UHGV virus genome: UHGV-0057547
DNA from: a virus
Length of the DNA stretch: 64,000 bases
Reading direction: 5' to 3' (one strand)
Part shown: positions 10,558 to 31,695 of the stretch, one piece after another
Position numbering within the stretch: the stretch's first letter is position 1
Layout: every line of letters begins with the position of its first letter
The notes under the pieces: generated by a model
Databases searched by the model: none
Seen by the model: only the letters and a program-made list of their open reading frames with translations
Told to the model about the DNA's origin: nothing
Program-made: the position numbers and the translations under genes

Positions 10558-10912
10558 TCAAGTAATGGATGAAGACTTCTTATGTATGATGCTTGGTGCT
10601 ACTAAAGGTGCAGATGGTAAAATATCTGTAACATCTTCAGTTCCAAACCAAAGTTATACAGCAGAAGGTACTTTCAGAACTACTTCATTAAATGGAGACC
10701 AATACAAAAAAATAAAATTCTACAACTTAAAAGCACAAGTTTCAGCTGACTTAACTTTATCTGCTTCTGATGTTTCTGAATTCTCATTAGTATTAGATAT
10801 AATGGCTGACGATGCTGGTAAAATATTAGATATAGAAAACACTGCTGGTGGAGTATCTGCTGGATTTAATGAACCTGAAATTGTTTCTATAAAAGCTAAA
10901 GCTGATAAATAA
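10558..10912 (+). CDS. Major tail (tube) protein, terminal exon
   Basis: ORF MDEDFLCMMLGATKGADGK... All three frames carry stop codons up to about 10555, so the exon must start after that point. Confidence 0.5.
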
Positions 10913-12033: not shown

Positions 12034-15000
12034 GTGAGTGAATTTGATATAAGAATTGGTACGCAACTAGATACTAGTAAAGCGTTACAACAATTGATGG
12101 AATTCGTCAAAAAATATGACAATAAAGAAAAGATAAATATAGACATAGGCCAAACAAAAGGTGCTAATAACATAAAAAACACAACCAAAGCTATGAAAGA
12201 AATGCAAAAGATAGCTAAGGCGTTAGGAAGCACAAAGATTGACATAGGTGGCAATATAGGTAAGGCTACTGGTGAAGCTACTAAATCATTAGAAAATAGT
12301 ATAGACAAACAAGCCAAATCTATTGCCAAAATAACTAGTAATGCACAAAGAGATTTAACTAAAGATGCTCAAAAAGGTATTGGGAATAGTCTTAAAGGTA
12401 TCAATGCAGAAATGAAAGATACCCAAAGAAATGTCGAGAGAATGATTAGTACTCTTGAACGAGCTAAGAAAGTTGAATTAATAGACCAAAAAGGTTTAGA
12501 TGAAGGGTTAGCTAAATTAAAAGATATGAAAGCTAATCTTAATATAGGTAATATTGACAATGTAGAAAAAAAATTAGGGGAAGTAGCAAGTGACTATAAG
12601 AAATTAATGACAGATGCAACTAAGGAAGCATTTAATAATGTTGAAGTATCAGGGTTATTAGAAGACTTAAAAGTTGTCAGAGAAGCTATGTCAGCTAAAA
12701 ACATGGATTTAAGTGGTGTTGATACTTTAATTTCTAAAGCTAAACAACTTACTTCTTTAAGTGTTGACCAAATGTTACAACAGTACAAAGAATTAAGACA
12801 AGTATTTAGTAAAGAATTAAAGATACCATTAGGTTTAAGTGGCATAATGAACGCTGAAACTGCAATTAAAAATGTTCTAGATTATAAAAACAAACTAACT
12901 GCTAAAGTTTCAGTTGAAACAAATTCAGAACAAATAGATATTTTAAAAGATAAAATAATAAGATGTGATGAAGTTGTTGAACAACTTAGAGGAGATTTAA
13001 ACTTAGTAGGTAGAAGTACAGCATTAAATTTAATGGAACAAGCTAATGAAAGAGAATTAGATACATTAAGCGCTAAATTAAAAAAATGTAAAAATGATTA
13101 TGCTAGTTTAGAAAAAGAAAGAGAAAGATTAAATAAAGATAGTAGATACCTTGGAACAGAAGATTTAAACAACATAGAGAAACAATCATTAGCCATAAAG
13201 AAAAACCTTGATAGTTTAAATGTTGGAAATTTAAATACTGATAAAATAAATAAAGTTACTGGTGACATAGATAATTTAAGAAAAACAATAGAATCAACTG
13301 GTAATTCAGCTAAAAAATTAGATATAGAAGCAACAGTTAAAGTAGATATGAAAAATGCTCAAGACCAATTAAATGGTATGTATTCTGCTTTAATAAAATC
13401 TAATAAATCTACCGTAATGGTTAAAAAATATAAAGATGAATTAGAAGGATTATTTGATTTATCTAAGACTAACCCAGGTGTAGCACTAGACAAAATAAGT
13501 GGTTTTATAGAAAAAGTAAATAAAGAAGCCAAGAATAAAGGTTTAGGTAAAATAACTGGTGGTTTAGACCAATACAAACAATACTTAAAAGATTATGAAT
13601 CATTAGTTAAAAAAGCTAGTGGTACTACTGATATTGGTTTTGCAAAAGCTTACAAATCAGAAGTTACACAAATAGAAAAAGCATTAGACCAATTAGAAAG
13701 TGGATTTAACCAAACTCAAAAATCTATGGCTAAATCTTTGAGATTAGAGTCAATTAATAAGAATACTCAAGAATTTATTAATCAAGTTGAGAAATCTATT
13801 AAGAAAACTCAAGAATATAAAAAAGAATTACAAACTCTTAATAATGATATAAATTTTGATGGTCTTACTTCTAAATTAGGTCAAAAAGTCAAAGAAGAAT
13901 TTGACGGAATGATTAATAAAACTAATCAATTAGAAAAAAGACTTGGCAATATGTTATCATCAGGTAACATAAATACTACTGAACTATCTAAGTTAAAATC
14001 AGAACTTGAAAGTACTTTTTCCGGACTTTCTAAACTTAAGGATACTAGTATAAAAATTAAAACTGATGAAACTGTATCAGGACTTAATAAAATCAAAAAA
14101 GATTTAGAAACATTAGGACAAGATACTAGTCAAATAGAAAGAGTTATTAACGCATTAAAAGAACTTAAAGCCAATTTCAATGGTGGTACAGCAGGTTATA
14201 AAGAATTAGCCAATGGAATAAAATCTATTGGAAAAGATAATAACTTAGAAAAACTAAATAGTTCTTTAGAAAAATCAGTTAAGAAATTTAATAACTTAGC
14301 TAAAGCTGTCGGAGAACTAAAGGTTAAAAATATAGGTAATATAGACCAAGGTGCTTTTCAATCTTTAGATAGTCAAGTTGCACGAATACAATCTCATATA
14401 GAAGGTTTAAATAAAAATGATATATCTTTAATAGATGTTAAAAAAGTTGAAGCAGAAGTAAATGAATTAAGCAACTGTGTAGAAAAAATGAGTAGTGAAT
14501 TAACTCAATATAGTAAATATTTGGAAGAATATAAAAGATTATCTAGTCAAGCAGGTAAAACAAATGATGTTAATTTAGCTACAAAATATCAACAAGAAGC
14601 AGAAGGTATAAAAGGTGTATTAACTCAATTAGAAAGTGAGTTTACACAAGCTCAAAAATCTATTGCTCAAGGATTAAAAACTGATGCTTTCTCTAATGCT
14701 AATGAAAAAATGTCTTCTGAAATTAATAAATCAATTAAAACAGTTGATAATCTTAAAGAAAAACTTAATACATTAGATAAAGATGTACATTTTGAAAATA
14801 TGACATCTGAATTAGGTAAAGAATTAAATAGTCAATTTGATACTTTAGCTAATAAAGGTGAAGAATTAAAAGATAAATTAAATAAAATATTAGCATCTGA
14901 TAACGTAGATATTTCTGCTTTAAGTAAAATTAAAAAAGAAATAAGCGAATTTGCAAGTGAAGTTAATAATTTAAAAAATTCTGCAATGGATAATGTTATT

Positions 15001-17166
15001 AGAGAATCTTTTGATAACATTAAAATACCTAATTTAAATAAACAACTAGAAGCCGTTAAAGATTTAATGTCACTTAAAAATATGGACACTAGTGGTATAG
15101 ATACTTTAATAGAAAGAACTAAAAAATTATCAAGTTTAAGCGTAGATAAAATAGGTCAAGAGTTTAAGGAAATACAAAATGCACTTGGTAAAGAAATTAA
15201 TTTACGTTTAGGTTCTAGTGGTATCAAAGATATAGAATCTGCATTAAAAGTTATATTACAATATAGAAATGAATTAAAAAATAAAATAGCAGTTGAAACA
15301 GATTCGTCAAAAGTAAAAGACCTTAATAACCAATTAGAAAAAACTGAGAATATAATAGAAAAGCTTAAAGGTCAAACTAGTGGTGGACTTGGTGCAAGTT
15401 TAATTAGCGATGCTAATAATAATAACTTAAAACAATTAGAAGATACTGCTAATGGATTAGAGAAAACATTCTCTAATTTAGAAAATGAAGTAAATAAATT
15501 AAACAGCGAAGCATTGAATAAGGTTGACATAAGTCAATTAAGGGAAATGAATGAAGTTGTTAATGATGTAAAGAAAAATTTAGCATCTATTGGAGAAGGA
15601 AATGTTAATGTTGATTCAATAAATAAAACAGCACAAGATATAGAAAAATTAAAAAGACTAATAGAAAACACTAAAAAGACAATTAGTGATATGAAATTAG
15701 AAGTTTCATTTAATATTAAATCAAATGAAGCAGAACAATATTTAGCAGGTTTTGAATCAGCTTTATTAAGATTAGGTAAATCAACTAGTGGAATAAATGA
15801 TTTAAAAAGTGAATTTGAAAGTATAAAAAATTCAGCTAACGGAAATTTAAGTAGTGCCATAAAAATGATTGATGACTTTATTAATAAATTAAAACAAATG
15901 GGTAGCAAACAAGGTCTAGGTAATATAAGTGGTACTATATCTCAATATAAACAATATGCTAAAGAATTACAACAAGCTATGAGTGGAGCATTGAAATCTA
16001 GTGGTTCTGATACAGCTAAAGGATTTGAACAACAAGCTGATAGAATAAAAAATGCTATGCAACGTTTAACTTCAAGTTTCAAAGAATCACAAAGAGAATC
16101 GGCTAATGCTTTTAACAGTAGTTCATTTAGTGGTTTTTCTTCTAAATATGAAGCTGAAATAAATAAAGTTGAAAAAAGTATAAACAGATTTAAATCATCA
16201 ATGCAAAATTTAGATAAAGCTGTAAACTTCAAAAGTTTCCAAAGTGATGTAGGTAGAGGTTTATCTGAACAATTTGACCAAATAATGGCGAAAGCCGAAC
16301 AATTAAGAGATAAACTAAAGAGTGCATTATCTTCAGGTACATTTGATATAAGTGAAATAAATAGAATAAAAGATGAATTAAAACAAGTTGAACAAGAAGC
16401 AGATTCATTAAAACAAAAATCTATTGTATTGAAATGTGCCGAAAGTATATCTGAATTAGAAAAGCTTAGTAGTAAACTAAGAGATATAGGTGGAGATACA
16501 TCACAAATAGACAGATTAAGAGATGAATTTGTTTCACTTGGTTCAGGTATAAAAGAGGGTACTGCTGGAATAGATGATGCAATTTCTAAACTGAAATCTT
16601 TATCTTCGGAAGCACAAAGAACTTTTAGTTCTTTTGAATCATCTACTGGTAAAATAGGTTCTTTTGGTTCTAAAATACAAGGTTTCTTTGGTTCTATTAA
16701 GGATTCATTTAGGAATTTTACTATTGGTGAATTAATGGCTGATGGTATAAATCAAGCTGTTTATCAAATAAAAGATACTATATCAGGTTTAGATGAAGCA
16801 ATGTCCGAATTTAAAAGGGTTGCTCCTGATAACTTTAGTTTAAACACATCTAACTTACAAAGTGTTGCTAATGAAGCAAGAGAAATAGGTATTAGTGTTG
16901 GGCAATCAGTAGAAGATGTTATCACTGGAATGAGTACTGCATTACAAGCTGGTGCAGGCGACATTAAAACAGCTTCTGAAATAGCTAAAAGTTCTGCTAT
17001 ATTCCAAAATGTTACAGATATGGATGCAAAAAGTGCCTCAAAAGCTATTTCTTCAATGGTTAACCAATATTATGATATGGATTCAGCATTAAATCAAGTT
17101 GACCACGGTGTAGGTAAATCTGTAAAAGGATACAATAACTTAACTGAAGCGATGGATTTGGTAATT
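12034..17166 (+). CDS. Tape measure protein (TMP), exon 1. The end is uncertain within 17166-17190.
   Basis: GTG start with RBS AAAGAGTGGTGG. Long coiled-coil repeats. TMP core motifs ...GISVGQSVEDVITGMSTALQAGAGDIKTASEIAKSSAIFQ... The stop at 17196 is followed by an HE cassette. Confidence 0.6.
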
Positions 17167-18205
17167 GATTTGCCGTTTATATTAGAAATAATATAAATTA
17201 TTAGAGGGCAAAATCGGTGAAGACTAAATATTTTAATTTATTTACTTTTAATAAAAAATATGGTATAATAATATAAAATAGGAGGGGATATAATGAGAAG
17301 ATTGAGTTATGAATATGTAAAAGAGTATATAGAAAATTTTGGTTATAAATTATTATCAAAAGAATATAAAAACAATAAAACTGAATTAGAAATACAATGT
17401 AATGATTGTGGGAATATATTCCATATGAGATTTAACAATTTTAAAGATGGTAAACATAGATGTGAATGTAAGAGCAAACCATTAGTTTTGACATATGAAT
17501 ATGTTAAAAATTATATTGAATCATGTGGATATAAATTATTATCAAAAGAATATAAAAATAATGCAACCTATTTATTGGTTTGGTGTGGAAATCCTAATCA
17601 CAAACCTTATAAAGTTAAATTTAATAATTTTAAAGATTGTAATAGTAGATGTCCTGAATGTAATACAACTTCAAAAGGTGAAGAAAAAATAAAAGAAATT
17701 CTAATAAAATATAATATAAAATTTAATCAACAATATTTATTTAATGATTGTAGAAATACAAGACCACTTCCATTTGATTTTTATTTACCACAGTATAATA
17801 TTACAATAGAATATGATGGGAGACAACATTATAAATTAGATTGTTTTAATATGAATTTATTAGATTTAATGAATTTGAAATATAATGATAATAAAAAAAC
17901 ACAATATTGCAATAATAATAATATAAAACTTATAAGAATACCATATTGGGATTTTAATAATATAGAAAAAATACTTAAAAAAGAATTAAAAGTAAATTGA
18001 ATAAAGTACAAGTTAATACCGAGATAACTTATTAGATTACGAAAAGGCTAATAAGTATTGTAGAGCATAGAGGATGAATAAATATAACTCCTCCAAGAGT
18101 GTCCTCCATCCTAACGTAAAGACGAGGATGAAAATATATGCCATACTGAATTGGAATAGACCAATTGATGAAAATGAGGGAAACCTCCAGAGCATAAGAT
18201 AAAAA
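17167..18205 (+). mobile_element. Type-B intron-like insertion B1 with a Vsr/DUF559-like endonuclease ORF
   Basis: 5' block TTAGAGGGCAAAATCGGTGAAGACTAA. After the ORF comes AATACCGAG...CCTCC...TAACGTAAAGACGAGG...GAAAATATATGC...AGATAAAAAG. This core is shared with B2 at 19883-20151. Confidence 0.5.
17293..18000 (+). CDS. Intron-encoded zinc-ribbon / Vsr-DUF559-like endonuclease (paralog, 2 modules)
   Basis: RPLPFDFYLPQYNITIEYDGRQHY...IKLIRIPYWDF. Promoter and RBS GGAGGGG lie upstream. Confidence 0.65.
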   Translation: MRRLSYEYVKEYIENFGYKLLSKEYKNNKTELEIQCNDCGNIFHMRFNNFKDGKHRCECKSKPLVLTYEYVKNYIESCGYKLLSKEYKNNATYLLVWCGNPNHKPYKVKFNNFKDCNSRCPECNTTSKGEEKIKEILIKYNIKFNQQYLFNDCRNTRPLPFDFYLPQYNITIEYDGRQHYKLDCFNMNLLDLMNLKYNDNKKTQYCNNNNIKLIRIPYWDFNNIEKILKKELKVN

Positions 18206-18238
18206 GCTTATGGATAATAACAATAGAAATTACGCTGG
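18206..18238 (+). CDS. TMP 33-nt mini-exon (LMDNNNRNYAG)
   Basis: Exactly 11 codons lie between the B1 3' G (AGATAAAAAG|) and the A5 5' splice site GCTGGT|. The putative P1 is CUGGU with AGCCAG, including a U-G pair. Confidence 0.4.
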
Positions 18239-18620
18239 TTAGAATTAGCCAGGCTATATGGAGACATATAGTACAAATCTCTTTTGAATTGCTGGAAAGG
18301 ACTTAGAGCCTATTGAACTACAACGTAGATGGAAACATCAAACGTGAATGTTAAAAAATCAATAGGATTGTTCAATCAGCAGGTAAAATTCTAAGTGATA
18401 ATTTATCATATGAATAAACTTCAACGACTATCCCTTGGATTTGCTAATTTAGTAAATCAATAGGAGTACGGCTCAAGCGATTGGAGTGGGTGAGAATCCC
18501 TTAAATGGAAGTGGAAGAGGACTTATAAAAGTTCAAGATATAGTCTACTCTCGTAGGAAATCTACGAGCAGTCCTTTTTTTGGACGGTATGTATATAGCG
18601 AATACATATGAATATTAAGG
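18239..18620 (+). mobile_element. Group I intron A5, no ORF
   Basis: P2 hairpin CTATATGGAGACATATAG, P AATTGCTGGAAAGG at 18287, Q AATCAGCAGGTAAAATTCTAAG at 18375, R at 18421, S AAGATATAGTCTACTC at 18541. The 3' end is ...ATGAATATTAAGG. Confidence 0.7.
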
Positions 18621-19004
18621 AATAACTTCGCAATTTCATCTGATGGTGTAACAGAAGCATTACAACGTGGTGGTTCTGTATTATCTAACTATGGAGTAGA
18701 TTTAAAAGATTCCATTGCAATGATAACTGGAGCAAATGAATCTTTACAAGACCCTGCTCGTATAGGTAATGGTTTAAAATCTATAGCAATTAACCTTTCA
18801 GGTATTAAAACAAATGCACAAACAGGTGCTCTTGAATTAAATAAAACAGCAAAAGCATTACAAGAAACTGCTAAAATAGATATATTTACTGATAAATCTA
18901 AAACACAAGTTAAAGATATTGTTAGTATACTAGATGAAGTAAAAGATAAATGGGCTTCTTTGACTGATGTTGAACAAAAAGGATTATCAGAAGCCATAGC
19001 AGGT
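18621..19004 (+). CDS. TMP exon 3
   Basis: In-frame NNFAISSDGVTEALQRGGSVLSNYGVDLKDSIAMITGANESLQDPARIGNGLKSIAINLSG..., which is the typical TMP core region. Confidence 0.55.
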
Positions 19005-20151
19005 AGTATGTAAGATTTTGTCTTATTAATTTATTGAATAGACATTATACAAAAATAGTAGTATAATATAAGTAATAAATTAATAAGGAGGGAACTTTCA
19101 TGGGGAAAAGTTCAAAAGATAAATATGAATTAGGTAAAGAAATGTTTTTACAAGGGAAAACAACAATGAATATAGCAAAAGAATTAAATATATCAAGAAG
19201 TAGATTTTCAAGATATTTAAGGGAGTGTGGAATAGATAGTCAACAATATCATAAATTTCCTATAGATGAAAATGTTTTTAATGTAATAGATACAGAAGAA
19301 AAAGCGTACTGGTTAGGATTTTGGTTTGCAGATGGATATGTAAGTTCAAATAGAAATACAGTAGGTATTGATTTAAAACCGAGCGATTTAAATCATCTAA
19401 ATAAATTAAAAACATTTTTAAAATGGAAAGGCGATATAAAAGTAGAAGAAACTAGATGTAGATTAAATTTTAGAAATGATAAAATTAAGAATGATTTAAT
19501 AAAATATGGATGTGTTCCAAATAAATCATTAACGTTAAAATTTCCAAAATCTATAAAAGAAAGTTTTATTCCAGCTTTTATAAGAGGTTATTTTGATGGC
19601 GATGGCTGTTTATGTTACACTGAAAAGACATTAGAAGTAAGCGTAATAAGCACTTATGAATTTCTTGAATCTATATGCGACATAATTAACATTGATAAAA
19701 AAAGAATATATGATTTAAATAAAAATAAAAAAACAAGTCGTATAGTTCTTAGTTCAAAAAAAGATATTAAAAACTTTCTTGAATATATTTATAAAGATGC
19801 TAATATTTACTTAGATAGAAAATATGAAAAATATAAAAATCTTAAAACTGCCGTCTTTGATAGAAATATTAAAGATAATTAGAGGGATGTATCGGTGAAG
19901 CCTAAGTCGAAAGATATGGTAATACCGAGGGTATCTTAACAGAGAATATCCGTAACGCATAGGGAGTGAGCGATATTGTTAGCAATAACCTCCCCACGAG
20001 CTTCCTCCACGATTATATATATAAGAATAATCACTTATAGATGTTGCTACTATAAGTTCTAACGTTAAACGAGAGTGAAAATATATGCTGGACTTATGAG
20101 AAATCATAAGAAGTGGATGTGTGAATTGACACACTATTAATAGATAAAAAG
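19005..20151 (+). mobile_element. Type-B intron-like insertion B2 with a LAGLIDADG ORF
   Basis: The ORF begins right after the 5' junction. The post-ORF core matches B1 (AGAGGGATGTATCGGTGAAG...AATACCGAG...TAACGTTAAACGAGAG...AGATAAAAAG). Confidence 0.5.
19100..19882 (+). CDS. LAGLIDADG homing endonuclease, double-motif
   Basis: The two LAGLIDADG-type motifs are YWLGFWFADGY and IRGYFDGDGC. RBS AAGGAGGG. Confidence 0.75.
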   Translation: MGKSSKDKYELGKEMFLQGKTTMNIAKELNISRSRFSRYLRECGIDSQQYHKFPIDENVFNVIDTEEKAYWLGFWFADGYVSSNRNTVGIDLKPSDLNHLNKLKTFLKWKGDIKVEETRCRLNFRNDKIKNDLIKYGCVPNKSLTLKFPKSIKESFIPAFIRGYFDGDGCLCYTEKTLEVSVISTYEFLESICDIINIDKKRIYDLNKNKKTSRIVLSSKKDIKNFLEYIYKDANIYLDRKYEKYKNLKTAVFDRNIKDN

Positions 20152-20286
20152 CTCCACGATAACAAATCGAAAACTCAAGCCGGTGTATTCCAAGCATTAA
20201 TGACAGGTTGGGAAAGAGTTCGTCAATATCAAAAAGAATACAATGAAGGTTGGATGATAGGTTCAGCTCAAAGAGAGAAACAACAT
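20152..20286 (+). CDS. TMP exon 4
   Basis: Open frame LHDNKSKTQAGVFQALMTGWERVRQYQKEYNEGWMIGSAQREKQH. It ends at a codon boundary on U, before intron sequence TCTCCGTATGTACAG. Confidence 0.4.
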
Positions 20287-20658
20287 TCTCCGTATGTACA
20301 GAAATGTGCATAGGACATAGATTTAATTGCAGGTAATCCCTAAAGCTCTACACCACAATATATCTGAAAAGAATATATGAAGGTACGAAAGTAGAAAAAA
20401 CGTAGAGATTCTCATATGGTTAAATCCTAAGTGAGAGTAACAATGGGTGTTCATGCAGGTAAGATTCTAAGTGATAATTTATCATATGAATAAACTTCAA
20501 CGACTAGAATGCAAATTCGTAGGGTGTAAGCGATTGACACTCGAAAAGGTCTACCCTTAATATTAAGGTGAAGAAATAGTCTACTCTTATAGGAAACTAT
20601 AAGCAGTTTTCATATAAAGAAAACGGATTAAGTGTAGCGAACTTAATTGAATAAATGG
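20287..20658 (+). mobile_element. Group I intron A6, no ORF
   Basis: P variant AATTGCAGGTAATCCC at 20327, Q GTTCATGCAGGTAAGATTCTAAG at 20460, R at 20497, S GAAGAAATAGTCTACTC. The 3' end is GTGTAGCGAACTTAATTGAATAAATGG. Confidence 0.65.
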
Positions 20659-23600
20659 AATGAAATCTATATGGATTCCATTGCTGGTAAATTTAATACT
20701 TTAAAAGAAAATCTTAAAGGAATATTAACTAGCAATGTTACAACAGATATGTTTAAAGGACTATTAGATGGTGCTAATAAAGTAGTAGAAGCAGTAGGAA
20801 AAATAAGTTCAAGCTTAGGTAAAATTGGTTCTGCTGGTGCATTAGTAGGTATTTCATCTTTTGTAAAAACTTTATCAAATTTAGATAAAGCTAAAACAAT
20901 AGGTGGTGGTTTTACAGGATTTGATAACCTATTAGAAGTAATACAAGGTACTGCTGTTACTTCTTCCGGTGAAATAAAAACACTAGGCGATAGTTTTAAA
21001 GAATTAGGTGTTAAGACAACTCTATCTAAAGTAGCATTAGGATTATTTAAAGGTGTATTAATGGGTATTGCATTTACTGCTGTTGTTAAAGGAATAGATG
21101 CTATGGTAAAAGCATGGGACAATTATATTCATGCAACAGAAAATGCAGTAAAGGCTTCTAAAGAAAGACAAGATGGATATAGAGACGAAGCACAAACATT
21201 AAGTACTAAAAAATCAAGTCTACAAGAAATAGCTAAAGAATATGATAATTTAAATAATAAATCTGATAAAACTGCTGAAGATTTAACTAGATTAAATGAA
21301 TTAAAACAACAAATAGGACAAATAGCTCCTGACCTTGTTAAAGGATATGATTCAGCAGGTAATCCAATATTAAATCTTACTACTAGTATGCAAGGTTATA
21401 TAGCTGAATTAGATAAAGCAATCGCTAAACAACGAGAACTATATAATTATGAAACTAAAAAACAAGCACGAGAATATATGAAGAAAAATGACACTAAAAA
21501 TGGTGCTCAAGACCCTGAAAGAAATTCTTATGAAACTGAATTAAATCATCTTCAAAATGCAAATGATAGAAAAACTAGAGAAGAAAAAAGATATACTGGT
21601 AGTTTAAAAAATATTATTAAAGATAGAAATAAATATAGAGAAGACCAAGAAAAAAGTATTAATGATAGATTAGAAAGAATTAGAAATGCACAAACAGAAG
21701 TTAATAATAGAGATACTACAATTGAAGATAATTATGTTAACGAATTTAATAAGAAAACTAAATTAGCCGAAAAAGAACAAAATAAATTTGCTACTTTTAT
21801 GAAAGGACTAAATTGGGGTACTTATGGTGAAGCAGAAGCCAATAGAATGGCTAAAGGTTTACAAACATTATCTGAAAAAACTGCGTTTACAACTCAAGAA
21901 ATGACAAAAGGATTATCAGGTAGTATGTCAAAAAAAGTTTCAGCAGAAATTGCTAAAGTAAATGCAGAATTCAAAAAGACAAATGCCATAAACGAATGGG
22001 GAAAAAATTTAAGAAATATAGCTAATGAAACAGGAAAATTTGATTTTTCAAATTGGAGTAATTACTTATCAGAAGTTCAAACTCGTTTTGAACAAGGAGT
22101 AAGTACTAATGAACAATATACACATTCATTAGGAATCATGGCTGATGCTATGGAAGATTTAACTGGTATAGATTCAGATGTATTCTTACCAGCTTTAAAA
22201 GGTGGAGCAGATTTAGAAGAAGCCTTTAAATCAGCAACTGAAGGTTTAAATGGTTTTATGAGTGCTTATGGTTCTTCTACTGCAAAATTACAACAAGGCG
22301 ATTCATTTGCTAAAAAGTTAGAGTCTCAATTTAAAGAACTTGAAAATTTTGAAACTGAATTTGAAGGTCAATATGAGATGGAAGGTAAAGTTAGGGTAGA
22401 CTGGTTAATAGAACAAAAAGATAATAAAGATTTACCTAAACAATTAAGAACTATAATAGATGCGGTAACAAAAGACAATGAAGTAACAGAAGTAGAAGAA
22501 AAATTAGTATTAGCCTGTGAAACAGAAATAAAAGATAAAGGTAAGTTGGAACAAAGTACAATAGATGCAATAAATCAAGTAATGGACGGAACATGGGATG
22601 TAAATAAAACTATTGAAATAGGTGGTATGGAATTTACATCATCTGAAATAAAAGAATTAATGTCATTAGCTGACCAATTAGGTATATCTTTAGAAGGCTT
22701 AAATATTGGTGATACAGGATTAGATGGAGAAGCTCAAAAAGCTCAAGCATTAAAAGATGCAATAGATTCAATCTCAGATAGAGAAATAAAAGTAGCAATA
22801 GAGGCTGAAGGATTTGAAAATTCCGACCAAGTTAACAATATAATGTCAGTTGTTGACCAAATAGATGGAAGACAAGCTAAAGTTGATTTTATAGCAGATG
22901 CTTCTCAATACTTTATGGAAAATGATAGTGTTGAATCAGCAATAGAAGCTATGCCTGATGAAATAAAACTTAAATATAATATTGGGGTTGAAGGTGATGA
23001 AAGACTAGAAGGAATACAAAGTAGACTTGAAAAATTACCAAAAGATATTAGAACTATGGTATATGCTCAAACATATGGTGTAGAAAATGTTGAAATGCTA
23101 GAAAAAATGGTAGATACTTTTGGTGGAAAAACTGCAACAGCAATATTACAAATAGAAGGTATACAAGATTCTCTTAAAAATGCTACTACATTTGAGGAAC
23201 AATTAAAAATAATTGGAGACTATGTATGTAAACCTGGAGTAGAAATAGAAGGTAAAGATAAAATACTTGACACAATTGATAGCATATTAAAGAAATTAAA
23301 AGAAACAGATGGTAAAGAAGGTAAAGCTAAAGTAGAAGTAGAAGGAGATACTTCAGGAGCTGAGAAAGTAGAGAAAAAAGTAGAAGAAGTAGATGGTAAG
23401 GAAGGTAAAGCTAAGGCAAAAGTTGATGGAGATACTTCAGGAGCAGATAAAGTAGAGAAAAAAGTTGATGAAGTGGACGGCAAGGAAGGGACTGCTAAAG
23501 TAAAAGTAGATGCTGATACTTCTGAAGCTGAAAAAGCTAAAAAAGAAGTAGACAATTTAGCTGTTAATAAAAATGGTACAGTTACTTTATTAGTAAATGG

Positions 23601-26600
23601 TCAAGAAAAAATAGCAGAAGCCAAAATCAATAAAGGTCAATTAGAAGTAGATGGTAAAGCAGTTACGACTATTTCTGTTAATGGTAAAGACCAATTGCCA
23701 GTTGCTATTAATGAAAAAGGTCAATTAGAAGTAAATGGTCAAGCTATAACTAATGTTAATGTTAATGGTAAAGACCAATTAACTTTGGCTAGAAATGAAA
23801 AAGGGCAATTAGAAGTAAATGGTAAAGCTATAACTAATATCGATGTAACAGGAAAAGAAAAAGTTTCTGATGCAAAAAAAGAAGTTGACGATTTAACTAA
23901 AGATAATAAAAATGTTAGTATTAATATTGATGTCTCATTAAAAGAAACTGTTGGTGAAATATTATCAAGATTTGGACTAAATAAGAAAACAGAAAATGTT
24001 GAAATTAACGTATCATGTAATGATAATGCAACTCCAGTATTAGAAAAAATAATGTCAAGACAAGATAAAACTATACATATAACAGTAGATTGTACAGACC
24101 ATGCAACTTCTAAAATAAACAATATAACTAAAATCGGAAATAAAACTGTAACAGTTACAATAAATTGTCAAGATAATGCTACTCCTAAAATAAATAGTGT
24201 GGCTAAGTTAGGAAATAAATCTGTAACAGTTACAATAAATTGTCAAGATAACGCAAGTTCTACGATAAACAGGGTTACAAGCGCACCTTCTTCTAAGTCA
24301 ATAAATGTTGTAGTAACTTGTTCAAATGGAGGAGCAGTTCTTAATACTCTTTCACAATTGGCTAGTAAAGTAATACCTAGCAAAAAATTTACTATAACTT
24401 GTGCAGATAGTGCTAGTAGTGTAGTAAGTAGAGTTAATGGTTTAAGAATATCTGATAAGAGATTTAAAATAGATTGTACAGATAATGCAACTGCTAAAGT
24501 AAATAGAGTTATTAGTAAAAAAATACCAAATAAATCATTTACTATAAGTTGTAACGATAACGCTAGTGGTAAGTTAAGCAGTATTATAAGCAAAATAAGT
24601 AATATCCATAGTAAATCAGTAACAATTACTACTAATCATGTAAGTAAAGGTGAAAAATCATCTGTTGGCGAACCAACAATTGTTGATTTACAACCTCAAC
24701 CATTTGGTAGTGCTCAAGCTTCTAATCCTCAAGTACAATCATTAGGCGAACAAGTTCAAGTATTAAGTGATAGTGTACAACAACAAACTGACAATAATAA
24801 TGAAGTTAGTGTAATGGCTAAGAAAACATATAAAGCCAATATTGATACTGGTTTAACAGTAAGTGCAGTTAAATATAATATTGATTTATTAACTAACATG
24901 AATAATCTACTTAAAAAATTAGGAACTCAAGTTGATATATTAAAAGCTAAACAAGAAAGAACTTGGGGTAATGCAAGTGCTAAATTACTTAGAAGTCAAA
25001 TTGCTTTACTAACTAAACAACAAAGTTTAACTAAAGTAAATATTAAGAACATGGAAGGCATGGCTAAAAAACTTAAGGGTAGTTTACAAAAACAAGGATT
25101 TAAGTTTAAAGATGATGGAACAATAAGTAATTACAATAGTAAACTTGTTAAAATGCAAAAAACTGTTGAAAGTTTAGAAAAAGCCGAAAAAGCATTAGAA
25201 GACCAAATAGATAAAACTGAGAAACAAATTTCAAAATCTGAAAAGAAATCTTCAAGCAAGAAAAAATCAACTAGTAAAAAGAAATCTTCAAGTAAGAAAA
25301 AGAGTACAAGCAAAAAGAAGAAAACTTCAAGTAAGAAAAAATCAACTAAGAAAAAGAGCACTACTAAGAAGAAATCAACTAGTAAGAAAAAGAGCTCTAG
25401 TAAGAGCAATAGAAAGACTACATCAAGTAAAGCTAGTAAAAAGAAAACTACTAAGAAGAAAAAATCAACTAGCAAGAAAAAGAGTACATCAACTAAGAAG
25501 AAAAGTACTAAGAAAAGCACTACTAAAAAGAAATCGACTAAGAAGAAGAGTACTAAGAAAAGCACTAAGAAGACAAGCACTAAATCAAAAGCAACTAAAG
25601 CATTAGAAAGTAAGAAGAGTGGATTAGAAAAGAAAAAAGATGCAATAAGCAAAAAATTAGAAAAAGCACAAAAAGAATTATCAGAAACTCAAAGCAAATT
25701 AAATGAATATTATAATCTACAATTTAGCGAAATTCCTGAAGCTCAACAACAATGGGAAGAATATGCTAATGCTATTGCAGAAGCTAAGGCAGAAATAATT
25801 AGATGTGAATTAGAAGCTAAAACATTCTTCAAGACAATTAAAATGGAAATGAAGGATGCTATGATTAGCAGAAATGAAACTTGGGCAGATACATTTATGT
25901 TAAAAGCTGATTTAAGTAGTTGGTCTAAGGCAGTAGGATACATTAAAGAAGCTAATAAATTATTAGAAAAAAATCAAAAACATCAACAATCAAAATTAGA
26001 AACTGCACAAGATAGAGCAAATGATAATAAAGCATTCTTAAAGAAACAAGGATTTAAATTTGATAAAAATGGATATGTAACAGGTGCTGAAAAAACTTTA
26101 GAAAAAATAAAAAAATCTAAATCTACTCAAGAATATGATGCTATAAAAGAAGCATTTGACCAATATGTTGAAGATATGTATGAAAACATTCCTAAAGCTG
26201 AAAATGAATGGTGGAAATTAGAACAAGAAATAAAGGAAAATGAAAGACAAATAAAAGAAACCACTAAGGCTATGAATGACTTAGTTAATTCAGCTAAGGT
26301 AGATAAATTAACTAGACAATTCGATGTACTTTCAAATAGTTTAGATATATTAGACCTTAAAATGGAACGTGCTTATGGAGCTAATAAAATAGACTATATG
26401 CAACAACAACTTGATATATTGACTAGTATGAAGAATAAGAATCAAGAAATTATTAATCAAAATACTGAGTTGTTAAATGATAGTAAGAAACAATTAGCTC
26501 AATATGGTATTACATTTGATGAAGATGGCAATATAGATAATTTATCAAGTGCATTGAAAAAATTAGATAATTTACAAGACATGGAAGATTTACAAGACTT

Positions 26601-27270
26601 AGTTGATGAATATAATGATTATAAAGATTCAATAGATGATGCTAGTAAATCAATTGAAGAAGAAACTAATAAACAACTTGAATTAAAAGATTCAATGATG
26701 GAAATTAGAGAAGAAATGAGAAAACTTAGAGATGATGCGTGGGTTAAAACTTATGAAAATGGTCTAAAAGTTATTCAAAATCGTATTGATACAATAGATT
26801 CTTTATTAGATTTGGAAGATGAAAATCAATTTGGTTTACTAAATCAAAAAATTGAAGAATATAAGAATTTAACTAAGGCAACTGAAGATAGTTTAGCTTA
26901 TCAAAAACATAGAAAAGTTACTATGCAAAAAACATTAATTGATTACGGATTCACTATTAATGATGATGGTACAATAGATGGAACTGCTAATAAATTAGAA
27001 CAACTTAAAAATACATTATCTGAAACTGAATTTGGTATAGTAAGTGATACATTAGAAGATTATTTTGATACTGCTTTAGATACAATTCCTGAATTAGAAA
27101 GAGAATTAATAAAATATCAAAAAGATTTAAAAGATATACAAAATACTAAACTAGAAAAAACTAAAACTATTGAAGAAAAAATTACAGAAATATATAATGA
27201 TGAAATAGATAAAAGAACTAAAAAGATACAAGAAGAAGCAGAAGCACAAACTAAAGCACTAAATAAGGCT
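20659..27270 (+). CDS. TMP exon 5, about 2,204 aa. It carries internal tandem repeats and a K/S/T-rich tract.
   Basis: In frame from the intron's 3' G. Sequence NEIYMDSIAGKF... The ORF-track TTG start at 20647 lies inside the intron's 3' end. Confidence 0.55.
23290..23560 (+). repeat. Three tandem coding repeats in the TMP of about 60 nt each
   Basis: The repeated peptide is (V/A)EGDTSGAEKVEKKV(E/D)EVDGKEGKAK. Confidence 0.6.
24090..24620 (+). repeat. About eight tandem coding repeats in the TMP
   Basis: The repeat is ...TVTINCQDNATPKIN.V.K.GNKS... with degenerate copies. Confidence 0.55.
25240..25610 (+). repeat. Low-complexity K/S/T-rich coding tract in the TMP
   Basis: KKSSSKKKSTSKKKSSSKKK... 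runs for about 120 aa. Confidence 0.6.
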
Positions 27271-27498
27271 AAATTTAGCCTGGTTGTCGAGTAATCGGCT
27301 TCAAAAATAATAGATTTAATTGCAGGTAATTCCTAAAGCCTTACACCACAAGCACAGAGAAATCATGTGTTGAAGGTACGAAAGTAGAAAAAACGTAAGG
27401 ATGGATATAAGGTTAAATCCTAAGTATCCAAACATATTTATATATGTTAAAATGGATGTTCATGCAGGTAAGATTCTAAATTAAATTATTTTAAATAT

Positions 27499-27541
27499 TT
27501 GACTTTTAATAAGATAAATTGTATAATATAAGTAAAGAGAG
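27499..27541 (+). promoter_or_regulatory. Sigma70-like promoter and RBS driving the intron-encoded HNH ORF
   Basis: TTGACT-17 nt-TATAAT with the TGTATAAT extended form, then AGAGAGGTGG as RBS. Confidence 0.5.
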
Positions 27542-28444
27542 GTGGAATATATGGGTCAAAAATTGAATAGAAAAAAAATAGAAAAATATATAAATCAATA
27601 TAATTATGAAGTTTTATATTGTAAACATGATAAAAATAAATATAAATGGAAACTCATTTTAATGTGCCCTAATTTTCATATTTTCAAAATGGATTTTGAT
27701 AAATTTCAAAATAATAGAAGATGCCCTTGTTGTAATGGTTCTAAGTATAATGAAGATTTTGTTAGAGAATATATGTTAAATAATGGAGATATACTTTTAT
27801 CTCATTATCATAATGGAAATGAAAAATTAAAAGTAATGTGTAAATATGGTCATATTTTTTATCCAATATTTAATAATTACTATAATAAAAATTCAAGATG
27901 TCCATATTGTAATGGGAATATAACTATGGAGCATAAAAGTTTTATTAATAGATTAAATACAATTAACCCTAACATAGAAATATTGGGTGAATATAAAAAT
28001 AGTCATACTAAAATTAAATGTAAGTGTAAAATAGATGGGCATGAATGGGAGGCAAAGCCTACTAATCTATTAGGAAGTAAAAATGCAAAACCAACTGGAT
28101 GTCCAAAGTGTTATAGACGAACTTATCGAGGTGAAACACATCCTTTATTTGACCATAGTAAAACAAAAGAAGATAGAGAAGATGATAGAAGTTATTTTGA
28201 ATATAATGAATGGAGAACTAAATGTTTTGAGAGAGATAAATATACTTGTCAAGTTACCGGACAACAAGGTGGAAGATTAGTAGTACATCATTTATATTCT
28301 TATAATAAATATTATTGTTTAAGAACGACATTGGAAAATGGTATAACAATATCAGAAGAAATACATAAAAAATTCCATTCTATTTATGGAAATGGAAATA
28401 ATACATTCGAACAATGGGAAGAATTTATTAAAAGTTTAAAATAA
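27542..28444 (+). CDS. Intron-encoded HNH endonuclease with N-terminal zinc-ribbon modules
   Basis: The zinc-ribbon modules resemble those of the Vsr-like family. The C-terminus carries CQVTGQQGGRLVVHHLYSYNKYYCLRTTLENGITISEEIHKKFH. Confidence 0.65.
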   Translation: MEYMGQKLNRKKIEKYINQYNYEVLYCKHDKNKYKWKLILMCPNFHIFKMDFDKFQNNRRCPCCNGSKYNEDFVREYMLNNGDILLSHYHNGNEKLKVMCKYGHIFYPIFNNYYNKNSRCPYCNGNITMEHKSFINRLNTINPNIEILGEYKNSHTKIKCKCKIDGHEWEAKPTNLLGSKNAKPTGCPKCYRRTYRGETHPLFDHSKTKEDREDDRSYFEYNEWRTKCFERDKYTCQVTGQQGGRLVVHHLYSYNKYYCLRTTLENGITISEEIHKKFHSIYGNGNNTFEQWEEFIKSLK

Positions 28445-28642
28445 TTTAACATGAATAAACTTCAACGACTATCCCTTGGATTTACTAATTTAGTAAATCA
28501 ATAGGAGTACGGCTCAAGTGATTGGAGTGGGTGAAATCCCCTTAAATGGAAAAGGTCTACTCCTACAATTGTAGGATGAAGAAATAGTCTTGACACGTTT
28601 TGAAAGAAAGTGCTTAGAATTAACTAAGGTTTATAAAATGCG

Positions 28643-29006
28643 ATTATAAATAAAATTTTTCGTAAAGAAGCTTATCAAAGATGGAGAGACGATGTTGACT
28701 ATAAAGATGATTATAACAAACAATTAAAAACTGTTGAAGATTTACAAAAGAAAATAGAAATAGCGAAACGTGATGATAGTTTAACTGGACAAAAACGTTT
28801 AGCAGATTTGATGAAAGAATTAAAAGAAGAACAAGAAAATCTTGAAGATATGGTTCAAGACAAAATTAACAGTGACGTGAATAATATGTTTGATGACCAA
28901 ATAGACAAAATAGAAGAAAATTCTGATGAAGAAGTTAAGAATTTGGAAAAAACATGGTCAGAAAGCAAAATAGCTGAAATGGTTAAACAAGCACTTGATA
29001 CTGGAG
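28643..29006 (+). CDS. TMP exon 6
   Basis: IINKIFRKEAYQRWRDDVDYKDD...KQALDTG. The frame is continuous with exon 5 when the intron ends at the G of ATGCG. Confidence 0.45.
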
Positions 29007-29217
29007 TAAATTAGCTCCTTTTACTAAGTAATTAGTATTAAAACTCATTGAATTGCTGGAACTTCCTAAAGCTAACTAAACTACAATATGGCTAGAAATG
29101 GCGAATATGAATGTGGCGAAAGCAGAAAAAATTAGTTAGATATTCATATGGTTAAATCCTAAGTGAATATAAATGGATAATCAGCAGGTAAGTGCCTAAA
29201 TTTATTTTATAAAATAA

Positions 29218-29268
29218 TTGACTTTTAATAAGATAAAACGTATAATATAAGTAAAGAAAGGGGTTGAG
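29218..29268 (+). promoter_or_regulatory. Sigma70-like promoter and RBS driving an intron-encoded endonuclease
   Basis: TTGACTTTTAATAAGATAAAACGTATAATATAAGTAAAGAAAGGGG is nearly identical to the cassette at 27499. Confidence 0.5.
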
Positions 29269-30360
29269 ATGATGAAAAAACATGATTATAAATTTATTAA
29301 AGAATATGTTGAAAGTTTTGGATATAAATTATTATCAACAGAATATAAAAATGCTAATACTAAATTAAAAATAGAATGTCAAGAAGGACATATGTTTGAA
29401 AGAACATTTAGTAAGTTTAAACAAACTCAAAATTGTCCATATTGCACTAATACTAGAAAATGGAATATTTTAGAAATAAAAGAGTATTTAAAAAACATAG
29501 GTTATACATTATTAAGTACAGAGTATAAAAATAATCAAACCAAATTAGATATGATTTGTTCAGAGGGACATAAAATACAAATGACTTTAGGAAATATCCA
29601 ACAAGGTAAAAGATGTCATATATGTTCAAGAAAAACAGCTTCAGAAAAAAGAAAACATGATTATGAATTCGTTAAGCAATATATTGAAAATGAAGGTTAT
29701 AAATTATTATCCAAAACATATATAAATCAAGATGAAAAATTAAAAATAAGATGTTCGAAAGGTCATATATTTTTAATGAGTTTTTGTAAATTTAAACAAG
29801 GTCAAAGATGTCCTCAATGTTGTAAAAATAAAAAAATGTCTCATAAAGAATTTTTAGAAAAATTCTATAATCAAAATTACAATACTGAAAATATAGAAAT
29901 ATTGAGTGAATATATAAATGCTAAGACGAAAATAAAATGTAAATGTCTAAAAGACGGTTGTATTTGGTATGTTATACCTAATAGTTTACTAAACGGAACT
30001 GGTTGTCCTCAATGTAACGAATCTAAAGGAGAAAAAAGAGTTGCTAAATATTTAGATAGTAGAAATATAGAATATGAAAGACAATATAAATTTAATGATT
30101 GTAAAAGTAACAAAGAGTTACCTTTTGATTTTTATATACATAGTTTAAATATAGCTATAGAATATGATGGTGGACAACATTATATGATAGTAAACCATTT
30201 TGGAGGACTTAATGGATTTATAACTACTAAAATACATGACACTATAAAAACACAATATTGCAAAAATAACAATATTCGTTTAATAAGAATACCATATTGG
30301 GATTTTGATAATATAGAAAATATACTAAGTCAATTATTAAATATAAATATGAATAAATAA
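29269..30360 (+). CDS. Intron-encoded zinc-ribbon / Vsr-DUF559-like endonuclease (paralog, 4 modules)
   Basis: ELPFDFYIHSLNIAIEYDGGQHY...IRLIRIPYWDF. Confidence 0.7.
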   Translation: MMKKHDYKFIKEYVESFGYKLLSTEYKNANTKLKIECQEGHMFERTFSKFKQTQNCPYCTNTRKWNILEIKEYLKNIGYTLLSTEYKNNQTKLDMICSEGHKIQMTLGNIQQGKRCHICSRKTASEKRKHDYEFVKQYIENEGYKLLSKTYINQDEKLKIRCSKGHIFLMSFCKFKQGQRCPQCCKNKKMSHKEFLEKFYNQNYNTENIEILSEYINAKTKIKCKCLKDGCIWYVIPNSLLNGTGCPQCNESKGEKRVAKYLDSRNIEYERQYKFNDCKSNKELPFDFYIHSLNIAIEYDGGQHYMIVNHFGGLNGFITTKIHDTIKTQYCKNNNIRLIRIPYWDFDNIENILSQLLNINMNK

Positions 30361-30508
30361 GGCAAAACTTCAACGACTATATATACTAGTAGTCTAGTTA
30401 GTGGTGAGCATCCTTATGGGATGATGATATAGTCTACTCTCATGTGAAAGCATGAGCAGTTCATAAGAGAACGGTATAAGGTTTAACGAACTTTATATGA
30501 ATATTAAG

Positions 30509-30910
30509 GTGTTTACAGATATTGATGGAAATATCAAAACTCTTCAAACAGCATTAATGGATTTTGCTAATACAAGTTCTGATTATTTTGGAGTTATGGG
30601 TGATTCATTAAAGAAAGAATTGTTAAATAATCTTAATGTAGCATTAGAGACTATGAAAGAACTTCAAAAAATGTCAGATAATTATACTGCTCCTAATATA
30701 GATTATAGCAATACAGTACTTCCAAAAGATAGTGGTATTAATACTTCTCCACAAGTTTCTAGTAATGTTGAAACTAATAATATTACAATTGGAGATACTA
30801 ATATTACAATTCAAGGTGGTGCAGATGATGTTACTTTAGGAAAAGTAGATGAAATGTTAAAAGATTACAAAGCAAGCATTTGTAAGGAAATTGTTAAAAA
30901 TATGAAATAA
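30509..30910 (+). CDS. TMP terminal exon
   Basis: VFTDIDGNIKTLQTALMDF... The ORF-track ATG at 30497 is intronic sequence ATGAATATTAAG. Confidence 0.45.
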   Translation: MFTDIDGNIKTLQTALMDFANTSSDYFGVMGDSLKKELLNNLNVALETMKELQKMSDNYTAPNIDYSNTVLPKDSGINTSPQVSSNVETNNITIGDTNITIQGGADDVTLGKVDEMLKDYKASICKEIVKNMK

Positions 30911-30916
30911 ATTTAC

Positions 30917-30958
30917 GAAGGAAGGGTTAAAATATAACTCTTCCTTCTTATTTTATAT
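30917..30958 (+). terminator. Putative terminator after the TMP gene
   Basis: GAAGGAAG...CTTCCTTC hairpin followed by TTATTTTAT. Confidence 0.45.
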
Positions 30959-30987
30959 ATGTAAGATAAAAGAAAGGAGAAAGGAAT

Positions 30988-31695
30988 ATGGCAAAGCCTT
31001 ATTATTTAAAATTTAAAATATGTAGTACTTGTAAAAATATATTACATATAAGTAAATTTAATAAAAATAAAAAATGTAAATATGGTGTGTCATCTCGATG
31101 CAGAGAGTGTGATAGAAAATATTATAAAAAATACTATGGGAGTAATAAAGAAAAAATAATAGAAACAAATAAAGAATATTATAAAAACAATAAAGAAAAA
31201 ATTTTAGAATACCATAAAGAATATTATGAAGACAATAAAGAAAAAATCTATAAAAAAACAAGACAATATGCAATTGATAATAAAGAGAAAACTAATGAAT
31301 ATAAAAGAAAATATAAAAAAAATAATCCTAATAAAACATTTAATAACAGTATAAAAAGAAGATTAAATGAAAAAACACAAGGTAATGGAATTACTAAAGA
31401 ACAATGGTATGAAATGATGGGATTTTTTGATTGGAAATGTGCTTATAGTGGAGAATACATAGGTGGAGATAATGATAATAGAACTATAGACCATATTGTA
31501 CCTTTAAACAATGATGGAGAACATGAAATTTGGAATTGTGTACCTATGTATCAACCTTACAACAGTGGTAAACGTGATAGAAATATGTTAGAATGGTATT
31601 TAAAACAAGAATATTTCTCAATAGAAAAATTAACTAAAATATATGAATGGAGAATATATGCATATAATAAATGGGGTGATATAAATGGCAAGTAG
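30988..31695 (+). CDS. Free-standing HNH endonuclease with an N-terminal NKEKI/EYY repeat domain
   Basis: RTIDHIVPLNNDGEHEIWNCVPM forms the HNH core. The K/Y-rich heptad-like repeats are NKEKIIETNKEYYKNNKEKILEYHKEYYEDNKEKIYKK. Confidence 0.6.
   Translation: MAKPYYLKFKICSTCKNILHISKFNKNKKCKYGVSSRCRECDRKYYKKYYGSNKEKIIETNKEYYKNNKEKILEYHKEYYEDNKEKIYKKTRQYAIDNKEKTNEYKRKYKKNNPNKTFNNSIKRRLNEKTQGNGITKEQWYEMMGFFDWKCAYSGEYIGGDNDNRTIDHIVPLNNDGEHEIWNCVPMYQPYNSGKRDRNMLEWYLKQEYFSIEKLTKIYEWRIYAYNKWGDINGK

Follow-up and report, generated by a model that had tools for sequence, protein, structure and literature searches.

The 64,000-nucleotide stretch of the virus genome UHGV-0057547 analysed here (the window) very probably carries, at positions 12034-30910 on the + strand, a single tape measure protein (TMP) gene of a large siphovirus that has been colonised by six mobile group I introns. 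In the exon map proposed here, seven exons of 5129, 13, 384, 108, 6611, 344 and 401 nt sum to 12,990 nt and encode 4,329 aa with zero internal stops. The introns (I1 to I6) form two tandem pairs, in each of which a class-B intron precedes a class-A one, plus two single introns, and homing-endonuclease genes are found in four of the six. An earlier note on this DNA, made from the sequence alone, had proposed one TMP frame crossing six intervening sequences through seven exons between the same end points, as well as two tandem intron pairs. Both proposals were borne out, the spliced product being colinear with uninterrupted TMPs, and the group I character of the introns is supported by matches to the Rfam model RF00028 for class A and by covariation for class B.

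Exon joins and the tape measure protein

To define the junctions, close relatives without individual introns were drawn from a collection of 5.8 billion proteins and their contigs were checked at the DNA level. Every junction was defined by intron-less alleles from such metagenomic relatives, at about 53-97% identity, together with intron structure, and the spliced 4,329-aa product aligns to uninterrupted TMPs with no indel at any junction. Small repeat ambiguities were settled by requiring an intron-terminal G, a solution available for all six introns (G18226, G18620, G20169, G20658, G28662 and G30509). The I5 boundary is ambiguous within UAAA, where this rule picks 27269/28663 (slashes mark junctions throughout), and that of I6 is ambiguous within GU.

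Exon 1 (12034-17162, 5129 nt) begins at a GTG with AAGAGUGGUGG upstream and ends in GAU UUG GU. The relative P0011 (90% identity; contig L010) has no I1 and reads ..AMDLV/NYAG/ before I2 is entered, its DNA being ..GAU UUG GUC AAU UAU GCU GGU, with 17162-64 joined to 18227-29. P0010, which has neither I1 nor I2, reads ..IDMINYAGNNWAIS.. at this place. Exon 2 (18227-18239) is a 13-nt mini-exon, AAAUUACGCUGGU, that supplies the third base of a Val codon followed by Asn-Tyr-Ala-Gly, and the RNA across the first two joins (J1 and J2) would read UUGGU/AAAUUACGCUGGU/AAUAAC. Exon 3 (18621-19004, 384 nt) encodes the C-terminal half of the Pfam domain PF10145, and homologues are colinear with it. Exon 4 (20170-20277, 108 nt) encodes 36 aa, KTQAGVF...SAQRE, spanned by TIGR01760. 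P0001, P0002 and P0004 (82-91%), as well as contig L011, read AIAG/KTQAGVF and SAQ(R/K)E/NE(V/I)(F/Y)MDS contiguously; AIAG/KTQA is also seen without I3 in P0001, P0002 and P0003, and L011 joins 20277-79 to 20659-61.

Exon 5 (20659-27269, 6611 nt) is an uninterrupted open reading frame (ORF) whose join to exon 6 is set by P0033 (95%) with L009 and L011. These read ALNKA/KE(A/S)YQRW, the P0033 stretch being ALNKAKESYQRW, and the two contigs join 27269-73 to 28663-67. Exon 6 (28663-29006, 344 nt) is colinear with P0033-P0038 and with the Clostridioides phages phiCD211 and LIBA2945. Exon 7 (30510-30910, 401 nt with the stop codon) is in frame with exon 6 only via 29006/30510 or equivalent joins. 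Homologues run through that junction; P0034, P0036 and P0038 are uninterrupted there with TG(V/I)F(T/E)DIDG, where the window has TG/VFTDIDG. The remaining RNA joins (J3 to J6) would be GCAGGU/AAAACUCAA, AGAGAG/AAUGAAAUC, AAGGC/UAAAGAAGC and CUGGAG/UGUUUACA, and the revised splice implies the junction peptides AMDLVNYAGNNFAISSDGVTEALQR, GLSEAIAGK, EYNEGWMIGSAQRENEIYMDSIAGK, ALNKAK and QALDTGVFTDIDGNIK.

The mini-exon is almost entirely occupied by intron pairings, bases 1-5 being P10 of I1 and bases 9-13 P1 of I2. A very short exon between tandem introns had been foreseen, although at 33 nt and with the peptide LMDNNNRNYAG; the exon is 13 nt long and only NYAG is exonic. Likewise, the P1 proposed at its boundary with I2 stands, with exon CUGGU plus the intron U pairing with AGCCAG (18247-18252) and 5 bp including a U18239.G18248 wobble at the splice site, whereas the 3'-terminal G thought to bound a 33-nt exon on the other side does not. 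An alternative reading frame for the mini-exon (..DLVLWIITIEITLVNNF..) was ruled out by the conservation of NYAG in homologues. This peptide is contiguous with both neighbouring exons in phiCD211, P0010 and P0011 and is also present in LIBA2945 and metagenomic relatives. In L018 (64% identical), which has I1 with its endonuclease and no I2, the exon is likewise contiguous with its neighbours and runs GU/A AAU UUU GCG GGA AAU AAU. All four combinations therefore occur in nature (both introns in the window, I1 alone in L018, I2 alone in L010 at 98% identity, neither in P0010 and phiCD211), so these are two independent insertions 13 nt apart.

Splicing could also be partly alternative or inefficient, with shorter isoforms made alongside the full-length TMP, and we consider this unlikely. 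Skipping of the 13-nt exon would cause a frameshift and truncation at ~1,720 aa, and skipping of the 108-nt exon would remove 36 aa in frame. There are precedents for such skipping: PMC10136302 describes short exons between bacterial or phage group I introns, of 23 nt in Twort orf142 and 34 nt in Coxiella 23S rRNA, that are both subject to skipping, and for one gene of Bacillus phage SIOphi the predominant variant lacks an internal exon (PMC11878797). Moreover, I4, I5 and I6 have a non-canonical base before the splice site and might splice poorly. However, skipping is proposed to involve two highly similar introns acting as a single large ribozyme (PMC10136302), and the paired introns of the window come from different classes, which makes such cooperation less likely. 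Selection should also favour accurate exon inclusion, since the TMP is essential and the tail takes its length from it, and the arrangement is kept in several near-identical genomes.

The protein itself argues for one gene. On the revised splice, PF10145 is matched over positions 2-201 of 201 at 73.6 bits (cut-off 33.2) and TIGR01760 at 77.9 bits across J1-J4 (cut-off 28.8). Unspliced, the exon 1 ORF gives no Pfam match and the exon 3 ORF only 27.7 bits for PF10145, below the cut-off. One domain is thus spread over exons 1 to 4 and becomes full only when they are joined, which, in the context of a tail module, indicates one TMP gene. A TMP gene is expected between the tail chaperone region and Dit/Tal, and downstream of this one are Dit (phrog_33) and Tal-like genes, with a match to a minor tail protein family (phrog_6211). 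Compared with annotated homologues, the spliced product aligns in two continuous blocks, the first over junctions 1-4 and the second over junctions 5-6, and uninterrupted TMPs align across all six junctions, those of phiCD211 and LIBA2945 and dozens of metagenomic proteins among them. A chimeric junction-spanning query matched 120 phage records by tblastn; single-piece matches were Bacillus and Brevibacillus TMPs, and matches in two to four pieces were phiCD211-like Clostridioides phages. Uninterrupted annotated homologues of 2,285-3,080 aa are found in the Bacillus phages SPbeta (YomI), Sundance, Thrax2 and PK-3.

Before splicing, the region (~28% G+C, AT-rich, every long ORF on the + strand) shows two very long ORFs, at 12034-17196 (1,720 aa) and 20647-27294 (2,215 aa), and shorter ones between and after them, four of which are of 235-363 aa. 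It is very improbable that these ORFs are separate tail proteins, unspliced and divided by spacers and free-standing endonuclease genes. Although phiCD211, LIBA2945 and Staphylococcus phage 6ec are annotated in this way ('minor tail protein' or 'ATPase' plus 'tape measure'), and an in-frame AUG at 30497 could serve exon 7, the domain over exons 1 to 4 is complete only after joining. In addition, exons 2, 3, 4 and 6 have no credible starts (the ORF list, in which ribosome-binding sites were not analysed, offers only an internal ATG at 18720 and a TTG at 28808), and the spacers are genuine sequences of group I ribozymes, precisely absent from close relatives with continuous ORFs.

The N-terminal 1,550 residues of the single TMP are made up of large duplications that have diverged: in a chunked self-comparison aa 168-790 are similar to 957-1555, and aa 506-744 to both 818-1062 and 1298-1525. 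In exon 5 (aa ~3250-3500) there are several short tandem repeat modules and a K/S/T-rich low-complexity stretch. The classical rule is 0.15 nm of tail per TMP residue. For 4,329 residues, corrected from the ~4,370 aa proposed before, this would give a tail of ~650 nm, to be read as an upper bound because of the low-complexity and repeat modules of exon 5. The expectation that so long a product implies a tail of several hundred nm is retained.

Intron classes, splice sites and mobility

Class A comprises I2 (18240-18620) and I4 (20278-20658), both of 381 nt and ORF-less, together with I5 (27270-28662, 1393 nt) and I6 (29007-30509, 1503 nt), which each contain an endonuclease gene in the P6 loop. 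The landmarks AAUUGCNGG, CAACGACUA and AUAGUCU are common to these introns. Against RF00028 (gathering threshold 50 bits), I2 scores 72.7 bits (E 1.1e-18, in a 461-nt slice), I4 50.6 bits (E 4.8e-12) and an ORF-less I6 allele from the IMG/VR relative L021 91.8 bits. I5, which has an ORF insert and was not scored itself, is 74-80% identical in its 5' part to I4 and to the Rfam hit at 57553-57887, and 93% identical in its 3' part to I2; the 3' tail of I6, UGAAUAUUAAGG, is identical to that of I2. Rfam cmscan of 15-57-kb slices (16500-31500 of the window and contigs L001, L002 and L009-L011), at the gathering threshold and at E ≤ 10, returned no group I intron. Introns missed in these long slices reach 50-92 bits in slices of ~450 nt, and the annotated phiCD211 intron was missed too, so that the misses are due to speed filters and not to intron absence.

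The predicted internal guide sequences fit the proposed joins. That of I4, CAUUCUC (20284-20290), pairs perfectly with the ligated exons GAG/AAUG over 7 bp, and that of I5, UUUAGCCU, pairs with AGGC/UAAA over 8 bp; for I6, P1 has 4 bp plus 1. The alternative guide GGCUU was discarded for I5, as it lies within a P2 hairpin that the intron at 57553, with its different exons, has conserved as well.

Class B, represented by I1 (17163-18226, 1064 nt, endonuclease gene in the P5 loop) and I3 (19005-20169, 1165 nt, endonuclease gene close to the 5' end in the P1/P2 region), appears to be an IA-like group I family with a P7.1 extension, the IA label being given by analogy with published phage TMP introns. 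The family is widespread among phage introns. Ten homologues were aligned (I1, I3 and those of LIBA2945, phiCD211, Bacillus PJN02, Staphylococcus 6ec, PG-2021_4, PT1-1, Streptococcus Javan355 and crAss-like cr128). RNAalifold recovered P6, P8 and P9 as well as an invariant P7 (GCAUA paired with UAUGC) and a strongly covarying P7.1, and 25 of the 39 pairs show compensatory changes; P3 and P4 were assigned by eye alone. These elements fit the core order P3-P4-P5-P6-P7-(P7.1)-P3'-P8-P7'-P9. The guide sequence of I1, GAUUUGCCG (17167-17175), pairs with the ligated exons UGGU/AAAUU over 9 bp, and the intron ends in GAUAAUAACAAUAG. For I3, UUUUGUCU (19016-19023) pairs with AGGU/AAAA over 8 bp and the 3' end is CGAUAACAAAUCG.

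The ending GAUAACAAnnnG is common to all ten class-B homologues and places the 3' ends at G18226 and G20169. The earlier note had instead taken G18206 and G20151 as intron termini. Both sit in a conserved hairpin loop of the class-B intron (AUAAAAAGC), its AAAAAG falling in the loop of the last class-B hairpin. Translated as written, its exon list contains 24 stop codons, because exon 2 is off by one (LMDNNNRNYAG lies at 18207-18239, not at 18206-18238) and the join of exons 6 and 7 is one base out of frame. Seven of its 12 coordinates are wrong, with both ends of I1 and I5, the 3' end of I3 and the 5' end of I4 misplaced and the 3' boundary of I6 slipped by one base; the exon given as 135 nt is 108 nt long by the intron-less alleles. 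After ±1 repairs the list yields one open frame, yet with 25 residues of intron sequence retained, seen against every homologue as insertions exactly at its junctions (8 aa at exons 1/2, 6 aa at 3/4, 3 aa at 4/5 and 7 aa at 5/6); its first join would read GUAAUU/CUUAUGGAU in RNA. That this map could nevertheless be right (exon 2 of 33 nt, exon 4 of 135 nt ending ...KQH, exon 6 starting IINKIFR..., product of ~4,353-4,370 aa) is scarcely credible: one frame does stay open after repair and both class-B introns show ...AUAAAAAG at the proposed 3' ends, but every extra segment is an insertion precisely at a junction relative to all homologues and is missing from intron-less alleles at 82-95% identity, the base matching G18206 is A in L018, the homology of I1 and I3, shared with the eight other class-B introns, runs on to GAUAACAAnnnG, and PF10145 falls from 73.6 to 54.8 bits.

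At a canonical group I 5' splice site, the exon-final U is paired with a G of the internal guide sequence. Such a U.G pair is present in I1 (U17162.G17172), I2 (U18239.G18248) and I3 (U19004.G19020). If the introns end in G, I4 (G20277-C20288), I5 (C27269-G27278) and I6 (G29006-C29015) would have Watson-Crick pairs at the splice site, and the Rfam model itself places G20277 and C20288 of I4 on the consensus U and G. Canonical alternatives were rejected: for I5, U27270/U28663 makes an in-frame UAA; for I6, U29007/U30510 shifts the frame; and for I4 no U is available. We found no literature report of non-U group I splice sites in phages, which is not proof of absence. If confirmed, these apparent sites would matter for the question of how the cleavage site is recognised by group I ribozymes.

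A sister class-A intron is found at 8784-10127, in a gene for a structural, tail-tube-like protein (8639-10912, 183 aa). This gene has two class-A introns, at 8784-10127 (containing an ORF at 9022-9948) and ~10180-10557, separated by a middle exon of 52 nt. At the first, intron-less alleles with 97% and 79% identity (L031 and L026) read GGA GAU AAC, and the window reads GGAG/UAAUUUGCUCC ... CAAAG/AUAACU, which puts the end of the exon at G8783 and makes the U of the U.G pair the opening base of the intron. L031 holds a further class-A intron (3170-3258) after ..GGUAGAACAGG in its tail-tube-like gene, at a site that is empty in the window.

The four endonuclease ORFs are all on the + strand. 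The I1 ORF (17293-18000, 235 aa) matches phrog_559 'HNH endonuclease' (3.8e-57), phrog_9084 'homing endonuclease' and phrog_7140 'intron encoded nuclease', and that of I3 (19100-19882, 260 aa) is a LAGLIDADG protein (PF14528, LAGLIDADG_3, 1.6e-12; phrog_4645, 1.9e-56). The I5 ORF (27542-28444, 300 aa) matches phrog_559 (2.4e-28), several HNH phrogs and the Pfam families DUF4379, CapR and HNH_2, and that of I6 (29269-30360, 363 aa) phrog_559 (4.3e-91), CapR (8e-15) and DUF4379. Each is preceded by a high-scoring promoter-like site on the same strand: TTTACT-17-TATAAT with an upstream TG at 17241-17269 (I1), TAGACA-17-TATAAT at 19039-19067 (I3), and TTGACT-17-TATAAT at 27499-27527 (I5) and 29218-29246 (I6). 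Thus all four intron ORFs may have their own sigma-70-like promoters, although this is only suggestive, as the total number of such sites is no higher than in shuffled sequence.

Near-identical genomes differ independently in which of the introns they carry. IMG/VR contigs of 147-198 kb are 96-100% identical to the window in the C-terminal part of the TMP, and L019-L024, L009 and L011 (IMG/VR, ENA), 88-99% identical in shared DNA, have different TMP sites filled and different endonuclease ORFs kept. I1, I2, I4 and I5 each vary in presence among relatives: I1 is missing from L010/P0011 and P0010, I4 from L011 and L019-L022, and I5 from L009, L011 and L019. The endonuclease genes of I3 and I6 are deleted in some relatives (I3 in L011, I6 in L019 and L021). 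Relatives also have extra introns at sites empty here, at positions ~5104-14, ~5294, 12371 and 12684 of the coding sequence, so that this one gene has at least 10 intron sites across the population. As a separate observation, positions 1-37 of L011 hold the 3' end of a class-B intron directly ahead of ..KSIAINLSG in the TMP, at a site near that of the phiCD211 class-A intron and also empty in the window.

In the mechanism we propose, each intron would fold in the late transcript, its guide sequence pairing with the flanking exons (P1 plus P10), and self-excision would restore the 12,990-nt ORF for the 4,329-aa TMP. The endonuclease ORFs, in peripheral loops and behind their sigma-70-like promoters, would drive homing. 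The ORF-less class-A introns follow, at distances of 13 and 108 nt, class-B introns that carry endonuclease genes, and we speculate that they could spread by co-conversion upon cutting by those endonucleases. A joint proposal, in which we place rather less than even trust, is that in the class-A lineage the cleavage follows a Watson-Crick-paired G or C immediately before the intron-initial U, that this lineage, together with a class-B partner, tolerates a 13-nt exon, the two ends of which serve as P10 of one ribozyme and P1 of the next, and that ORF-less class-A introns hitch-hike on the adjacent class-B endonuclease.

Several points weigh against the reading of one spliced gene or of its details. 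Splicing of the six introns, in whatever order, is predicted from DNA and protein comparison. The absence of the U.G pair in I4-I6 could mean reduced or factor-dependent splicing, and P10 is weak for I2 and I6. RF00028 gives no match to an ORF-less class-B intron even at E ≤ 10, and comparative folding was therefore used for this class, whose assignment rests on topology, covariation and what we take to be the IA-type architecture. The tail estimate assumes an extended helical TMP, and exon 5 is partly K/S/T low-complexity sequence and non-helical-looking repeats. Finally, the skipping of short exons that lie between group I introns is on record (PMC10136302), so that not every transcript need yield the full protein.

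Neighbouring features and other introns in the window

Just 3' of the TMP stop, an intrinsic-terminator-like hairpin is found at 30917-30947 on the + strand, with a 13-pair stem followed by UUAUUUUAUA. A free-standing HNH/EndoVII gene follows at 30988-31695 and is missing from L019, L020, L022 and L023.

The class-A P7 motif CAACGACUA occurs 13 times in the window, at 849, 4453, 9963, 18422, 20498, 28463, 30371, 55316, 56609, 56964, 57786, 62292 and 63962. Adding the two class-B introns brings the total for the 64-kb window to at least 15 group I introns, which is unusually many for a phage. A second multi-intron gene at 53756-58548, whose product has a purple-acid-phosphatase N-terminal domain, seems to be split by four class-A introns at ~55130, 55592 (with an ORF at 55844-56590 inside), 56841 and 57553. 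Three of these four are the sole Rfam matches of a whole-window scan.

Comparison with known systems

Group I introns in TMP genes have been described before. Prophages of the Bacillus cereus group carry the self-splicing IA1/IA2 introns TMP-IVS1, IVS2 and IVS3a/b (Tourasse and Kolsto 2008, PMC2504315). Like the introns of the window, these occupy several TMP sites, some with endonuclease genes, and are present or absent among related phages; related introns adapt P1/P10 to different sites (PMC2504315). In that study, however, introns were found at three sites, no gene had more than two of them, and the TMPs are of >1,200 aa (PMC2504315). The window has six introns in one gene, two classes in tandem, a 13-nt exon and a predicted TMP of 4,329 aa, with the at least 10 sites across its population.

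A comparable phage tail gene is orf142 of Staphylococcus phage Twort, in which a very short exon separates two of several group I introns. It has three introns, a 23-nt exon and exon skipping (Landthaler and Shub 1999, via PMC10136302 and PMC11878797). There the exon lies between two highly similar IA2 introns, whereas the window combines a 13-nt exon with two classes and six introns, predicted from sequence. The 13-nt exit/entry exon is thus shorter than the 23- and 34-nt exons named in PMC10136302.

The closest named TMP homologues (~36-41% identity) are those of the large Clostridioides difficile siphoviruses phiCD211, phiCDIF1296T and LIBA2945. In LIBA2945, exactly the I1 codon is occupied by a class-B intron that lacks an ORF. 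In phiCD211 (LN681537.2, L001), the region ~9843-10417 contains a class-B intron (~9843-10128), an exon of ~30 nt and an annotated Intron_gpI, the same tandem of class B and class A as in the window. These phages differ in having one or two introns, free of endonuclease genes in the cases examined, at partly different places in each, and a TMP total of ~2,500-2,700 aa (annotated pairs of coding sequences summed). Their class-B introns are unannotated in the records, and the flanking coding sequences of phiCD211 are annotated as separate proteins. Staphylococcus phage 6ec (Sextaecvirus) and Streptococcus phage Javan355 also have a class-B 3' domain directly upstream of a 'tapemeasure' coding sequence, beside an HNH or homing endonuclease ORF, but unlike the window only a single intron each, not annotated as such. 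Public annotation pipelines miss such introns systematically, with the TMPs of phiCD211, LIBA2945, 6ec and Javan355 split into false separate genes.

The 4,329-aa TMP would be ~40% longer than the largest annotated homologues found and would extend the upper range of ruler proteins. To call the tail extreme for a siphovirus, as had been done, is fair, but it would not be unprecedented: annotated relatives reach 3,031-3,080 aa, and Thermus phage P74-26, a siphovirus unrelated to the window phage and with the longest known tail, has one of nearly 1 µm (PMC10034513). The passages of that paper considered here do not report introns for it. The TMP of P74-26 is about 5,000 aa.

We found no literature report of a TMP with six introns, which does not prove that there is none. 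The gene would be an extreme natural test for group I splicing, with six ribozymes of two classes that must all act accurately in one 19-kb pre-mRNA, and its at least 10 alternative intron sites make it a good system for studies of homing and co-conversion. Since TMP group I introns (PMC2504315), multi-intron phage genes and exons of 23-34 nt are already published, the window is an extreme case of a known kind. Several predicted features go beyond the literature found: a single gene with six introns from both classes, an exon of only 13 nt, a load of at least 15 group I introns within 64 kb, and a TMP of 4,329 aa.

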